This document shows, one piece after another, positions 37,001-44,982 of a stretch of DNA of 55,000 nt. Origin of the DNA: Escherichia coli. Lineage in GTDB: Bacteria; Pseudomonadota; Gammaproteobacteria; Enterobacterales; Enterobacteriaceae. How positions within the stretch are numbered: position 1 is the stretch's first letter; each line of letters starts with the position of its first letter. The notes under the pieces were generated by a model that had not been told where the DNA came from, did no database searches, and saw only the letters and a program-made list of their open reading frames with translations. The stretch lies in assembly GCF_003334355.1 (NCBI RefSeq), contig NZ_QOWP01000026.1, one strand, 5' to 3'. Both the position numbers and the translations under genes were made by a program.

Positions 37001-37861
37001 ATGAGCAGCAATACATTTACTCTCGGTACAAAATCCGTTAACCGTCTTGGTTATGGCGCGATGCAACTGGCAGGTCCTGGAGTTTTTGGCCCCCCACGAG
37101 ATCGCCACGTCGCTATAACCGTGCTGCGTGAGGCGCTGGCATTGGGCGTCAATCATATTGATACCAGCGACTTTTATGGTCCGCACGTCACCAATCAGAT
37201 TATCCGCGAAGCGCTTTATCCTTACTCTGACGACCTGACAATTGTCACTAAAATTGGTGCGCGGCGTGGAGAGGACGCATCCTGGTTGCCCGCATTTTCT
37301 CCGGCAGAGCTGCAAAAAGCGGTGCACGATAATCTACGTAATCTCGGGCTGGACGTGCTGGATGTGGTTAACCTGCGCGTTATGATGGGGGATGGTCATG
37401 GCCCAGCGGAAGGATCGATTGAGGCCAGCCTGACCGTGCTGGCAGAGATGCAACAACAAGGCCTGGTAAAACATATTGGCCTGAGCAACGTCACACCGAC
37501 GCAGGTTGCAGAGGCGCGCAAGATTGCCGAAATTGTCTGTGTGCAAAACGAATACAACATCGCGCACCGTGCTGATGATGCAATGATTGATGCTTTGGCC
37601 CACGATGGCATTGCCTACGTGCCGTTCTTCCCGCTCGGGGGCTTTACACCGCTGCAATCGTCCACACTTTCCGATGTTGCTGCGAGCCTGGGTGCAACAC
37701 CAATGCAGGTGGCGCTGGCGTGGCTGTTACAGCGTTCACCGAATATTTTGCTGATCCCAGGGACGTCTTCGGTTGCGCATTTACGGGAGAATATGGCTGC
37801 TGAAAAATTGCAACTTTCTGAGGAAGTGTTGTCTACGTTGGATGGTATTTCGCGAGAATAA
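37001..37861 (+). CDS. ydbC: Aldo-keto reductase family oxidoreductase
   Basis: 286 aa ORF (MSSNTFTLGTKSVNRLGYGAMQL...) typical of the AKR superfamily. Confidence 0.85.
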   Translation: MSSNTFTLGTKSVNRLGYGAMQLAGPGVFGPPRDRHVAITVLREALALGVNHIDTSDFYGPHVTNQIIREALYPYSDDLTIVTKIGARRGEDASWLPAFSPAELQKAVHDNLRNLGLDVLDVVNLRVMMGDGHGPAEGSIEASLTVLAEMQQQGLVKHIGLSNVTPTQVAEARKIAEIVCVQNEYNIAHRADDAMIDALAHDGIAYVPFFPLGGFTPLQSSTLSDVAASLGATPMQVALAWLLQRSPNILLIPGTSSVAHLRENMAAEKLQLSEEVLSTLDGISRE

Positions 37862-37870
37862 CGAATATAC

Positions 37871-37908
37871 AAAAGGGAAAGATGCATTTCCCTTTTGTTT
37901 CTTTTTTA
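37871..37908 (+). terminator. Intrinsic terminator after ydbC
   Basis: Stem aaagggaaa/tttcccttt followed by a T-rich tract. Confidence 0.6.
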
Positions 37909-37924
37909 ATGGCATGGAGTGCAT

Positions 37925-41007: not shown

Positions 41008-41903
41008 TGCTGGAAAAATCTCTGGCAACACTTTTCGCGTTGTTAATTTTAGCAACGCTGATAAACCGTTTTCTGCTATGGCGGTTACCGGAGAGAAAAG
41101 GGGGTGAGGTTACATTACGTATTCGTACCTGGTGGGGCATCGTCATTTGTTTTTCAATGGTGATTTCAGGTCCACGCTGGATGACGTTGACGTTTTTTGC
41201 GCTGATAAGTTTTCTGGCATTGAAAGAATATTGTACGCTTATATCTGTACATTTTCCGCGTTGGTTATATTGGGGTATTCCTCTTAACTATTTGCTTATC
41301 GGTTTTAATTGCTTTGAGCTGTTTCTGTTATTTATACCTTTGGCTGGGTTTCTGATATTAGCCACCGGGCAAGTTTTAGTGGGTGACCCCTCTGGTTTTC
41401 TGCATACCGTGAGCGCCATTTTTTGGGGCTGGATAATGACCGTTTTCGCCTTGAGTCATGCCGCCTGGTTATTAATGTTGCCAACCACAAATATCCAGGG
41501 CGGGGCGTTACTGGTGTTATTTCTTTTGGCATTAACCGAGTCAAACGATATTGCACAGTATTTATGGGGAAAATCCTGCGGCAGAAGAAAAGTGGTCCCT
41601 AAAGTCAGCCCGGGAAAAACATTGGAAGGTCTGATGAGCGGCGTCATCACCATCATGATTGCGTCACTGATTATCGGACCGTTACTGACACCGCTAAATA
41701 CATTACAGGCATTATTAGCGGGTTTGTTAATTGGTATTAGTGGTTTTTGCAGCGATGTCGTGATGTCAGCCATCAAACGAGATATTGGTGTTAAAGATAG
41801 CGGAAAACTATTGCCAAGACATGGCGGACTCCTTGACAGGATTGACTCATTAATTTTCACCGCTCCGGTATTTTTTTATTTTATACGCTACTGCTGTTAC
41901 TGA
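41007..41903 (+). CDS. ynbB: CdsA-like phosphatidate cytidylyltransferase family membrane protein
   Basis: 298 aa polytopic membrane ORF with a C-terminal CdsA-type signature (SAIKRDIGVKDSGKLLPRHGGLLDRIDS); 1-nt stop/start overlap with ynbA (TAATG). Confidence 0.85.
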   Translation: MLEKSLATLFALLILATLINRFLLWRLPERKGGEVTLRIRTWWGIVICFSMVISGPRWMTLTFFALISFLALKEYCTLISVHFPRWLYWGIPLNYLLIGFNCFELFLLFIPLAGFLILATGQVLVGDPSGFLHTVSAIFWGWIMTVFALSHAAWLLMLPTTNIQGGALLVLFLLALTESNDIAQYLWGKSCGRRKVVPKVSPGKTLEGLMSGVITIMIASLIIGPLLTPLNTLQALLAGLLIGISGFCSDVVMSAIKRDIGVKDSGKLLPRHGGLLDRIDSLIFTAPVFFYFIRYCCY

Positions 41904-41918
41904 AGGAAAATAGAGAAA

Positions 41919-43676
41919 ATGGAAAATTCACGCATCCCTGGGGAACATTTTTTTACCACCAGTGATAATACAGCGTTGTTTTATCGGCACTGGCCCGCTT
42001 TACAGCCCGGGGCGAAAAAGGTCATCGTCTTATTTCATCGCGGGCATGAACATTCTGGTCGTCTACAACATCTCGTTGATGAACTGGCGATGCCAGATAC
42101 TGCTTTTTATGCCTGGGATGCCCGAGGGCATGGAAAAAGTTCGGGGCCGCGTGGTTATAGCCCATCTCTTGCGCGTTCAGTGCGGGATGTCGATGAATTT
42201 GTCCGTTTTGCTGCCAGCGACAGCCAGGTTGGACTGGAAGAGGTGGTAGTGATCGCGCAAAGCGTCGGCGCAGTGCTGGTTGCCACATGGATTCATGATT
42301 ATGCACCTGCAATTCGCGGGCTGGTGCTGGCTTCTCCGGCCTTTAAGGTTAAATTGTATGTGCCGCTGGCACGTCCTGCGCTGGCGTTATGGCATCGTCT
42401 GCGTGGTCTGTTTTTTATTAATTCCTATGTGAAAGGACGCTATTTGACCCACGATCGGCAACGGGGGGCGAGTTTCAATAATGATCCGCTGATCACACGG
42501 GCGATTGCCGTTAATATCTTGCTCGATCTCTACAAAACGTCTGAACGTATTATTAGAGATGCGGCGGCGATTACGCTCCCCACGCAACTTCTGATATCAG
42601 GCGATGACTATGTGGTGCATCGCCAACCGCAGATTGATTTTTATCAGAGATTACGTAGCCCTCTGAAAGAGCTGCATCTGCTGCCAGGCTTTTATCACGA
42701 CACGTTGGGTGAAGAGAACAGGGCGCTGGCATTTGAAAAAATGCAAAGCTTTATTAGTCGTTTATATGCTAACAAATCGCAAAAATTTGATTATCAGCAT
42801 GAAGACTGCACAGGACCATCAGCGGATCGATGGCGGCTACTTTCTGGTGGACCCGTGCCATTATCGCCGGTTGATTTAGCGTATCGCTTTATGCGAAAGG
42901 CGATGAAATTGTTCGGGACGCACTCTTCGGGCCTGCATCTCGGAATGAGCACCGGCTTTGATTCAGGCAGTTCGCTGGATTATGTCTATCAAAATCAACC
43001 GCAAGGTAGTAACGCATTCGGGCGTTTAGTCGACAAAATCTACCTGAACAGTGTTGGCTGGCGCGGTATTCGCCAGCGCAAAACCCATTTACAAATACTG
43101 ATTAAACAAGCCGTTGCCGATCTCCACGCCAAAGGTTTAGCCGTCCGCGTGGTTGAAATTGCCGCAGGGCATGGGCGCTATGTACTGGATGCGCTGGCAA
43201 ACGAGCCTGCCGTAAGCGATATTTTGTTACGTGATTACAGCGAGTTAAATGTTGCACAGGGGCAAGAGATGATTGCTCAACGGGGAATGTCTGGGCGGGT
43301 GCGTTTTGAACAGGGCGATGCGTTTAACCCGGAGGAACTCAGCGCGTTAACTCCGCGGCCTACGCTGGCGATTGTCTCTGGCCTGTATGAGCTTTTTCCC
43401 GAAAATGAGCAGGTAAAAAACTCACTCGCAGGTCTTGCCAATGCCATCGAACCGGGCGGCATTCTCATCTACACCGGGCAGCCGTGGCACCCTCAACTGG
43501 AGATGATTGCCGGGGTGTTAACCAGTCATAAAGATGGTAAACCGTGGGTAATGCGCGTGCGTTCGCAAGGGGAGATGGATTCACTCGTGCGTGATGCCGG
43601 ATTTGATAAATGCACACAACGGATTGATGAGTGGGGTATTTTTACGGTTTCGATGGCGGTGCGTCGTGATAACTGA
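41919..43676 (+). CDS. ynbC: Fusion protein: alpha/beta-hydrolase (lysophospholipase-like) N-domain plus SAM-methyltransferase-like C-domain
   Basis: 585 aa ORF. N-terminal HRGHEHSGR and nucleophile-elbow AQSVG motifs; the C-terminal half has a class I methyltransferase-like fold signature ([14 protein letters not shown]). Confidence 0.85.
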
Positions 43677-44982
43677 ACGTCGGAACGTATTGCTACAAGG
43701 CGCTGGCTGGTTATTGTTGCTGGCCCCGTTTTTCTTCTTCACCTATGGATCTCTTAATCAGTTCACCGCGGTTCAGGACCTTAACAGCCATGATATCCCC
43801 AGTCAGGTATTCGGTTGGGAAACGGCGATCCCTTTTCTTCCCTGGACTATTGTTCCTTACTGGAGTCTGGATCTTTTATATGGATTTTCGCTGTTCGTTT
43901 GTAGCACGACATTCGAACAGCGCCGACTTGTCCACCGGCTTATTCTGGCAACGGTAATGGCCTGCTGCGGTTTTTTGCTCTATCCGCTGAAGTTTAGTTT
44001 TATCCGTCCTGAAGTGAGTGGGGTGACGGGATGGCTATTTTCGCAACTTGAACTGTTTGATCTGCCTTATAACCAGTCTCCTTCGCTGCATATTATTCTC
44101 TGCTGGCTACTTTGGCGTCACTTTCATCAGCATCTGGCTGAGAGGTGGCGTAAAGTCTGCGGCGGATGGTTTTTACTCATCGCCATTTCGACGCTGACGA
44201 CCTGGCAGCATCATTTTATTGATGTCATCACAGGGCTGGCGGTAGGTATGTTGATTGACTGGATGGTGCCCGTCGACCGTCGTTGGAATTATCAGAAACC
44301 TGATCAACGTCGAATCAAAATAGCACTGCCCTATGTCGTAGGCGCGGGCTCGTGCATTGTATTGATGGAGCTAATGATGATGATTCAGTTATGGTGGTCA
44401 GTCTGGTTATGTTGGCCAGTATTATCGCTACTCATAATTGGCCGTGGGTACGGTGGGCTTGGCGCGATAACAACAGGGAAAGATAGTCAGGGGAAACTAC
44501 CGCCCGCCGTTTACTGGCTGACATTGCCCTGCCGCATCGGGATGTGGCTGTCTATGCGTTGGTTTTGTCGTCGCCTGGAGCCGGTGAGCAAAATGACTGC
44601 TGGTGTTTATTTAGGGGCGTTTCCACGACATATTCCGGCACAGAATGCGGTTCTGGACGTCACCTTTGAATTCCCTCGCGGACGAGCGACAAAAGATCGA
44701 CTCTATTTCTGTGTACCGATGCTGGATCTGGTGGTTCCGGAAGAGGGGGAGCTACGACAGGCCGTGGCGATGCTGGAAACATTACGCGAAGAGCAAGGCA
44801 GCGTTCTGGTCCATTGCGCATTGGGATTATCGCGCAGTGCGCTGGTAGTGGCGGCATGGCTGTTATGTTACGGACACTGTAAAACCGTTGATGAAGCGAT
44901 TAGCTTTATTCGAGCCAGACGCTCGCATATTGTGCTTAAGGAAGAGCACAAAGCGATGTTGAAATTATGGGAAAACAGGTAA
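43666..44982 (+). CDS. ynbD: Membrane-anchored dual-specificity (CX5R) phosphatase
   Basis: Several N-terminal transmembrane helices and a C-terminal catalytic motif [10 protein letters not shown]. Start set at the GTG overlapping the ynbC stop; an alternative start a few codons downstream is possible. Confidence 0.8.

Follow-up and report, generated by a model that had tools for sequence, protein, structure and literature searches.

The 55-kb stretch of Escherichia coli DNA analyzed here (the window, within which all coordinates are given) raises the question of why ydbD and the adjoining ynbABCD operon look poorer in GC than the paa genes and hrpA on either side. An earlier note on this DNA had suggested either that ydbD-ynbABCD was acquired horizontally as one block or that it is under different expression constraints. 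The low GC of ydbD, ynbA, and ynbB is confirmed here. The explanation that we favor, and to which we give a little better than an even chance, is that the low-GC tract consists of two independent, long-resident, and weakly selected units that sit at an AT-biased mutational equilibrium. A feature of this kind is ordinary and already understood.

The interval 37001–44982 matches E. coli chromosomes, best that of strain PSS-12 at 99.9% identity, and gene annotation was taken from RefSeq for this strain. The left boundary gene is pdxI (formerly ydbC), which codes for pyridoxine 4-dehydrogenase and lies on the plus strand (37001..37861; NCBIfam NF007695 at E 3e-168), and the right boundary gene is azoR on the minus strand (45033..45638). 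Between them, all on the plus strand, are ydbD (37925..40231), which codes for a protein of 768 residues with a C-terminal DUF2773 domain; ynbA (40402..41007), for a membrane protein of the CDP-alcohol phosphatidyltransferase family; ynbB (41007..41903), for a CdsA paralogue of the phosphatidate cytidylyltransferase family; ynbC (41919..43676), for an alpha/beta hydrolase fused to an S-adenosylmethionine-dependent methyltransferase; and ynbD (43666..44982), for a PAP2 and dual-specificity phosphatase protein.

The background for base composition was 236 kb of E. coli MG1655, in which 177 long open reading frames (ORFs) were called heuristically; these genes have a mean GC of 0.519 (S.D. 0.026) and a mean GC at third codon positions (GC3) of 0.556. 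In sliding windows, GC falls to 0.41–0.46 at ~37.5–42 kb, against 0.53–0.55 over the paa genes and 0.53–0.56 over hrpA. Gene by gene, ydbD (GC 0.432, GC3 0.402) and ynbB (GC 0.433, GC3 0.448) rank at the 1st percentile of the background genes in GC and ynbA (GC 0.457, GC3 0.50) at the 3rd, whereas the paa genes lie at 0.50–0.56, hrpA at 0.537 (GC3 0.62), pdxI at 0.531, and azoR at 0.518. The AT-richness that the earlier note had seen by eye in ydbD and ynbA/ynbB is thus borne out. The low GC that it ascribed to 37001–44982 holds for ~37,780–41,980 but not for pdxI, ynbC (GC 0.509), or ynbD (GC 0.501), the last two of which are close to the genome average, and the dip in raw GC spans only about half of that interval.

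Maximum-likelihood segmentation with two breakpoints delimits a low-GC tract without strand at 37780..41980, with GC values of 0.524, 0.431, and 0.512 to the left of, within, and to the right of the tract and a log-likelihood gain of 36.8 over a single segment; both edges are approximate. The left one falls at the pdxI terminator and the right one at the junction of ynbB and ynbC. The first of these is a terminator-like hairpin on the plus strand, 3' of pdxI (37869..37898, a 12-bp stem followed by a T-run), which separates pdxI from ydbD and lies just within the left edge of the tract. The lowest 4-kb stretch of the whole window is 37919–41903 (3,985 bases, GC 0.434), and only 0.2% of the 4-kb background windows are equal to it or lower. 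Similarly deep 1-kb dips occur elsewhere in the window (30.0–31.5, 33–34.5, and 53–54.5 kb), but none is as long.

Codon usage sets all five genes apart. With weights from 30 ribosomal-protein and elongation-factor genes, the codon adaptation index (CAI) of ydbD and ynbABCD is 0.25–0.32 (ydbD 0.30, ynbA 0.25, ynbB 0.26), at or below the 6th percentile of the background. Taken for ydbD, for ynbA plus ynbB, or for the tract as a whole, the GC-normalized dinucleotide signature (delta*) is typical of E. coli, 41–47% of background windows of the same length being at least as deviant.

Outside Escherichia the two units have different distributions. A YnbB scan of one genome per species (GTDB) found 61 loci. 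In Citrobacter, Phytobacter, Superficieibacter, and a related metagenome-assembled genome, the order is ydbH-(ynbE)-ydbL, then ynbA-ynbB-acyltransferase (213 residues)-ynbC-ynbD, then azoR-hrpA. At up to 15 loci in four genera, ydbH-ydbL is directly upstream of ynbA and azoR-hrpA is downstream of ynbD, and the ydbL/azoR-hrpA neighborhood is common to E. coli and other Enterobacteriaceae. The order ynbA-ynbB-...-ynbC-ynbD and the Pfam families of the four proteins (CDP-OH_P_transf, CTP_transf_1, Abhydrolase with Methyltransf_20, and PAP2/DSPc) are shared by the operons of Citrobacter, Phytobacter, Superficieibacter, Yersinia, and Budvicia, among others. A ydbD-like gene within 10 kb was found at none of the 60 non-Escherichia ynb loci. 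Presence in relatives, which the earlier note had pointed to as informative, therefore divides the supposed block, ynbABCD being widespread in Enterobacterales and ydbD confined to Escherichia.

The Escherichia operon differs from those of other Enterobacterales in that it has no acyltransferase gene, its proteins diverge by 23–40%, its GC is 6–11 points lower, and pdxI-ydbD lies upstream of it. Between E. coli and the Citrobacter-group loci, protein identity is 87–96% for the flanking genes and 54–77% for the Ynb proteins. The E. coli operon is a reduced variant with four of the five genes of this lipid-operon set. Only 15–18 nucleotides separate ynbB from ynbC in E. coli and E. whittamii (15 in E. 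coli), so the loss of the acyltransferase gene was a clean one. Where it is present, this extra gene codes for a PlsC-like protein of 213 residues (L010:10916–11557 in C. gillenii, and the same position in most of the loci L010–L069) that has NHNSHMD as its HX4D motif and gives a match to NCBIfam TIGR00530 (E 1.5e-17). The ynb operons of Lonsdalea and Rahnella likewise are without it.

Within the genus, the order in E. whittamii, which has lost ynbD, is ydbL-pdxI-ydbD-ynbABC-azoR. In E. albertii it is ydbL-(ydbA)-pdxI-ydbD-azoR, without fea, tynA, the paa genes, or ynb, and the ydbD-azoR gap contains a diverged remnant of ~63 nucleotides that translates to the YnbD C terminus (alignment score 39; shuffled sequences reached 28 at most). 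The corresponding 3' end of ynbD in the window, at 44899..44961 on the plus strand, also survives beside azoR in the L003 form of E. coli that has lost the block (see below). From the E. whittamii order and the E. albertii remnant it follows that the common ancestor of E. coli, E. whittamii, and E. albertii had pdxI-ydbD-ynbABCD-azoR. Because ydbD and ynb were lost independently, they form neither a functional nor an evolutionary unit. A locus labeled E. fergusonii (L083) was set aside as an outgroup, since its hrpA is ~99% identical to that of E. coli and is thus uninformative. E. albertii has two pdxI-ydbD haplotypes, with nucleotide identities to the window of 92%/90% (L070) and 81.5%/81.5% (L072); the azoR-hrpA segments of both are equally distant from E. 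coli, which points to old allelic lineages or to recombination at the locus.

The orthologues of ynbA and ynbB are much richer in GC. At 13 syntenic loci of Citrobacter, Phytobacter, Superficieibacter, and the related metagenome-assembled genome, their mean GC is 0.54 and their GC3 0.64–0.68, with GC values of 0.52–0.56 in Citrobacter and related genera. Relative to the Citrobacter-group orthologues, GC3 in E. coli is lower by 0.13 in ynbA, 0.23 in ynbB, 0.14 in ynbC, and 0.115 in ynbD, against 0.016 in azoR and 0.026 in hrpA. Because all four genes lie below their orthologues, the whole ynb operon is shifted, and the normal-looking raw GC of ynbC and ynbD reflects a higher starting value. Outside E. 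coli, a low ynb GC (0.42–0.435) was found only in E. whittamii. The GC of ydbD is 0.429–0.433 in E. coli, E. whittamii, and two E. albertii alleles, although their nucleotide sequences have diverged by 10–19%.

Both units are frequently missing within E. coli. Among 5,426 complete genomes, 5,418 have pdxI; counting a segment as kept when at least 80% of it is present, ydbD is kept in 3,834, ynbABCD in 4,281, and the whole interval in 3,749, so that ydbD falls below this threshold in 29% and ynbABCD in 21%. A form without ydbD (L002; 477 genomes) retains ynb together with the first ten ydbD codons and a filler of 107 nucleotides. The filler is a single lineage-specific allele and gave no significant match to ydbD of any species or to the Citrobacter ydbL-ynbA spacer. 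In a form without the block (L003; 146 genomes), position 37864 is joined to 44911 and the last ~70 nucleotides of ynbD are kept. Counting E. albertii, remnants of ydbD or ynbD are present at three of the four absence junctions examined, and the absences at L002, L003, and E. albertii are therefore deletions. There are at least five distinct deletion junctions, and further decay in E. coli includes a ynbC gene with an internal stop, an IS200 insertion together with a frameshift of ydbD, and internal ynbA-ynbC deletions.

The fourth junction (L084; 643 genomes, including O25b:H4-ST131) places pdxI 39 bp from azoR with no remnant. In azoR-hrpA, this form and the ynb-positive strain L002 are ~100% identical; the junction is therefore recent and arose by segment replacement, and for the same reason we rejected the idea that it proves an empty site to be ancestral. 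The incoming DNA seems to derive from a lineage in which pdxI and azoR are adjacent; a donor of the replacement was not found. This pdxI-azoR junction of B2-type genomes, which lies at L084:7790–7906 in E. coli 1162invT2, also has a new hairpin. The C terminus of PdxI in these genomes (...DSIAQKAG) resembles that of C. amalonaticus (...DGIAQKA) and not the usual E. coli sequence (...DGISRE).

Constraint on the five genes is relaxed. With six E. coli alleles, E. whittamii, and E. albertii as comparisons, the Nei-Gojobori method (NG86) gives a ratio of nonsynonymous to synonymous divergence (dN/dS) of 0.16–0.26 for ydbD, 0.07–0.22 for ynbA, 0.13–0.48 for ynbB, 0.12–0.21 for ynbC, and 0.18–0.27 for ynbD, with most values at 0.13–0.30 and all below 1, compared with 0.02–0.07 for pdxI, 0.01–0.07 for azoR, and ~0.01 for hrpA. 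ynbB is the fastest-evolving ynb gene within Escherichia. The suggestion of different expression constraints finds support here: CAI is 0.25–0.32, dN/dS exceeds that of the flanks 3- to 20-fold, and the YdbD and YnbB proteins are reported to be below 1 ppm (bioRxiv 10.1101/038851).

The composition of the tract is also stationary. When E. coli polymorphisms were polarized with E. whittamii as outgroup, ydbD, ynbA, and ynbB together showed 84 changes from GC to AT and 88 from AT to GC; the equilibrium GC that these counts imply is 0.445, and the current value is 0.433. In the flanks the counts are 211 and 112, with an equilibrium of 0.38 against a current 0.537, and the two sets differ in direction (Fisher p = 5e-4). 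ynbC has 53 GC-to-AT and 37 AT-to-GC changes (equilibrium 0.425, current 0.514).

The following course of events would account for these observations. ydbD is an Escherichia-restricted gene with a secreted-looking product that was present before E. coli, E. whittamii, and E. albertii split, and ynbABCD is an old enterobacterial lipid-metabolism operon, in a ydbL...azoR-hrpA neighborhood shared with sister genera, that is dispensable in Escherichia and probably expressed there at a very low level. The five genes are under weak selection, with regard to codon choice as well. The AT-biased mutation of E. coli could then have driven them to a GC of ~0.43–0.45 and would hold them there, since weak selection lets AT-biased mutation act. 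ynbA and ynbB would be lowest because they code for hydrophobic membrane proteins, which have a lower baseline, and underwent the largest shift; ynbC and ynbD would have had a similar loss of third-position GC from a higher starting point. We infer from the data above that the cause is mutation bias under weak selection, rather than foreign origin or selection for AT-richness.

Some part of the low GC could be expected from the proteins alone, as YnbA and YnbB are membrane proteins with low GC at first codon positions (0.49 and 0.43), the GC expected from their sequences is ~0.02–0.03 below that of ynbC and ynbD, and 1-kb dips are common in the window. However, when GC was compared with that expected for each protein under background synonymous usage, ydbD, ynbA, and ynbB retained deficits of 0.064, 0.050, and 0.072, at or below the 1st percentile (ynbC and ynbD, 0.027 and 0.026, 12th to 14th percentile). 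The Citrobacter orthologues of the same membrane proteins are not AT-rich, which together with the deficits leaves protein composition insufficient as an explanation, and we rejected it as the cause. ydbD does not code for a membrane protein and yet has the lowest GC3 of the set, and the rarity of 4-kb background windows as low as the tract makes chance fluctuation a poor account as well; a by-product of protein composition or chance is thus very improbable. Recent acquisition of ydbD-ynbABCD as a single island within E. coli, which the atypical composition and the presence/absence polymorphism among genomes would suggest, is just as hard to credit. The block is older than the species, as the E. 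whittamii arrangement and the pdxI-ydbD order with a ynbD remnant in E. albertii show, and most of the absences examined carry remnants of the missing genes. No tRNA gene was found at 28–50 kb of the window, no integrase, transposase, other mobility ORF, or insertion sequence at the tract, no tandem repeats of note, and, as direct repeats flanking the tract, only imperfect ones of 14–16 nucleotides at chance level. The dinucleotide signature is typical, and the polymorphisms lack the excess of AT-to-GC changes expected during amelioration. The proposal of the earlier note that ydbD-ynbABCD was acquired as one block is accordingly not supported in the form given: its units differ in distribution and were lost independently, their absences are mostly deletions, and the hallmarks of an island are missing.

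Several points nevertheless weigh against long residence at mutational equilibrium, and many of them would fit an ancient xenologous re-acquisition, which amounts to the same block hypothesis shifted back to the root of the genus. The resident ynb operon, left of pdxI as in C. koseri, would have been lost at the base of Escherichia, and a foreign, AT-richer ydbD-ynbABCD without the acyltransferase gene inserted between pdxI and azoR. The Escherichia operon does lie across pdxI from where it stands in C. koseri and C. amalonaticus; in C. koseri, pdxI and azoR are direct neighbors, as they are in the 643 B2/ST131-type E. coli genomes, and measured against that order ydbD-ynbABCD looks inserted. 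Its gene content also differs by the acyltransferase gene that most other genera have between ynbB and ynbC, and from this absence and the opposite side of pdxI it follows that the genus must in any event have undergone a rearrangement or a replacement at its root. ydbD has no vertical history outside Escherichia, GC3 of all five genes is below that of the flanks, and the ynb cluster family is mobile, occurring on plasmid-like contigs and, in some other genera, as segments richer in GC than their flanks (see below). YnbB has a long branch, being 60% identical to its Citrobacter counterpart when Citrobacter and Yersinia share ~70%, and for ynbA–ynbC the NG86 synonymous divergence (dS) of E. coli from Citrobacter has reached saturation or is undefined, with values of ~1 in the flanks. 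Against re-acquisition, no donor was found: among 5.8 billion proteins, YnbB identities drop from at least 80%, all in Escherichia, to at most 62%, and YdbD has no relative above 31% identity outside Escherichia. Neighbor-joining trees (without support values) keep Escherichia YnbA, YnbB, YnbC, and YnbD with the Enterobacteriaceae clade, on a long branch. That branch is at least partly due to high rates within the genus, since YnbA and YnbB differ by ~20% between E. coli and E. whittamii, whereas HrpA differs by 1%. Because dS was saturated, identity at four-fold sites was compared with chance instead; between E. coli and Citrobacter it is 0.35–0.41, with 0.25–0.28 expected. Compared with the flanks, this identity is lower by a factor similar to that seen between Citrobacter and Superficieibacter, so there is no extra depth specific to Escherichia, and the divergence is no deeper than the general rate of the operon predicts. 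The native dinucleotide signature and the separability of ydbD and ynb in extant genomes also argue against a foreign block. We consider this re-acquisition unlikely, although far from negligible, and a translocation or re-acquisition at the Escherichia root possible at a similarly low level. Alternatively, selection, perhaps for the binding of H-NS, could keep the GC stationary at 0.43. The tract would then be a nucleation and silencing platform, with BglJ-RcsB as counter-silencer, on which a cryptic envelope-lipid operon and a secreted bactofilin-like protein are kept silent at ~43% GC; the identical GC across Escherichia would be a mark of selection acting on composition as such. BglJ-RcsB targets the ynbA promoter, and its other targets bgl and leuO are H-NS-repressed (PMC3950696), protein levels are extremely low, and GC has stayed at ~0.43 across Escherichia species despite a sequence turnover of 10–20%. 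We regard this as improbable, because the balance of polymorphisms is the one predicted for neutrality at mutational equilibrium and frequent deletion and pseudogenization argue against strong selection; the searchable literature yielded nothing specific to this locus on H-NS binding at ydbD or ynbA. The case for mutational equilibrium is weakened by the sharp GC step at the ynbB/ynbC junction and by the raw GC of ynbC and ynbD, which is near 0.50 even with dN/dS and CAI resembling those of ynbA and ynbB, a contrast that the different starting points account for only partly. The background gene set consists of heuristic ORF calls on only 236 kb, and polarization is error-prone with an outgroup that is 10–20% diverged.

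The tract resembles the low-GC, weakly expressed accessory genes of E. coli known as K-islands or strain-variable segments, a class deleted from reduced-genome strains, in its atypical GC, low CAI, variability among strains, and dispensability in the laboratory. It differs from them in having no mobility genes, tRNA, or repeats, in being older than the species, and in that its absences are mostly deletions; half of the supposed island, ynbABCD, is an ancestral operon in an ancestral neighborhood. A departure of a segment from host composition is the usual signature of transfer under the classical amelioration model, which is reportedly due to Lawrence and Ochman. Unlike what that model predicts, the tract shows no drift to host GC, has the same composition across Escherichia, undergoes balanced changes, and has host-like dinucleotides. 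The closer parallel is with the AT-biased mutation that Hershberg and Petrov (2010) and Hildebrand et al. (2010) are said to have described, in which GC is maintained by selection or biased gene conversion: the flanks have an excess of GC-to-AT changes and lie far above their implied equilibrium, and the tract is near its own. Unlike the genome-wide tests, this is one locus with ~170 polarized sites and a fairly distant outgroup, and it serves as an illustration only. It is a compact natural example of genes at the mutational GC equilibrium of E. coli (~0.43–0.45), and it shows a five-gene lipid operon shrinking and being repeatedly lost within one genus. It also calls for caution, since low GC, the standard quick test for transfer, here flags a segment half of which is an ancestral operon in place.

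ydbD is an old, genus-restricted member of a sparse family. The N terminus of YdbD looks like a signal peptide by inspection. The protein matches PF10971 (DUF2773) at E 2e-45 over residues 688–768, and it fits the form of the DUF2773 family, which is ~750–800 residues long with a C-terminal DUF2773 domain and an N-terminal bactofilin-like beta-helix region, although the match to the latter is weak (PF04519, E 0.048). In a word-indexed search of the 5.8 billion proteins, close relatives (at least 76% identity) were confined to Escherichia. An exhaustive HMMER search of 1.84 billion cluster representatives gave ~30 full-length relatives of 746–790 residues at 21–30% identity. Matches labeled as plasmids proved to be mislabeled 4.8-Mb chromosomes, together with weak matches of 25–28% identity to the N-terminal domain in Streptomyces and Embleya, and a plasmid or phage origin of ydbD was rejected on this account. 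The ultimate origin of the gene may well be foreign.

The nearest relative outside Escherichia (P0039; 746 residues, 30% identity, with DUF2773) is encoded at L078:8001–10241 on a metagenome-derived enterobacterial contig. Its gene stands between sprT and a galP-like transporter gene, in an AT-rich islet with a GC of 0.438 against 0.535 in the flanks. Ala and Arg abound in the more remote full-length relatives, which therefore presumably come from high-GC bacteria. Natural length variants of YdbD have 682, 711, 725, 768, and 890 residues. Short direct repeats, imperfect and spaced 438–480 nucleotides apart, occur in ydbD between 39029 and 39960, such as GGTGGAGTAATCTGGCGAAAA, which encodes WS.LAK; these reflect internal helical repeats of the protein.

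The best similarities of YnbA to curated families are to archaetidylinositol-phosphate synthase (E 5e-21) and phosphatidylinositol-phosphate synthase (E 8e-13), both of them below the curated cut-offs. Judged from their sequences, YnbA, the CdsA paralogue YnbB, and YnbD look like a pathway that would make and then dephosphorylate a phosphatidyl-alcohol phosphate. YnbB is a non-essential CdsA paralogue whose overproduction raises the level of MPIase and whose knockout has no growth phenotype (PMC6362211). For work on MPIase and YnbB, it matters that the Escherichia operon is degraded, fast-evolving, and without the acyltransferase, and that the operon is missing altogether from roughly one E. 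coli genome in five, ST131 among them.

The ydbD-ynbA intergenic region (40232..40401, plus strand) contains the ynbA promoter, which BglJ-RcsB reportedly activates (PMC3950696). When this promoter was compared between E. coli and Citrobacter, the only conserved element was a borderline match of 17 nucleotides before the start codon, at the ribosome-binding site. ydbD and ynbB were removed in the multiple-deletion (reduced-genome) strain of Posfai (bioRxiv 10.1101/038851). A transposon-fitness study lists both as important for fitness despite protein levels below 1 ppm, which puzzled its authors (10.1101/038851). Insertion bias or a polar effect in an AT-rich tract could be an artifactual source of this signal.

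Citrobacter-type clusters with the order ynbA-ynbB-acyltransferase-ynbC also occur on plasmid-like contigs of E. coli assemblies (L080:9399–13316, L081, and L082), so the operon family is mobile. These clusters are 79–88% identical to C. gillenii and have a GC of 0.53–0.55 in a backbone of 0.45. The contigs carry in addition ParM/StbA, a plasmid stability protein, a ParE toxin, umuDC-like genes, and an integrase, and a protein of the cluster is indexed in 976 collection blocks. In Serratia oryzae, Hafnia paralvei, Buttiauxella, and Leminorella (L014, L018, L025, and L055), the ynb operon is 5–10 GC points above its flanks and nearly as similar to Citrobacter as Citrobacter species are to each other. 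Together these two features suggest that a Citrobacter-type operon was transferred into these genera.

Elsewhere in the window, paaX and paaY end at 30401, and hrpA occupies 45839–49741. The autotransporter gene ydbA (30732–36793) is frameshifted in this strain and consists of two overlapping ORFs, 30732–33845 and 33830–36793. It contains two more GC dips (0.42–0.44), within 30001–31500 and 33001–34500, and its dinucleotide signature is the most atypical measured in the window, ~5% of background windows being equally deviant. A gene for a gapC-type glyceraldehyde-3-phosphate dehydrogenase at 52491–53492 is an intact ORF of 333 codons in this strain; in K-12, gapC is presumably a pseudogene.

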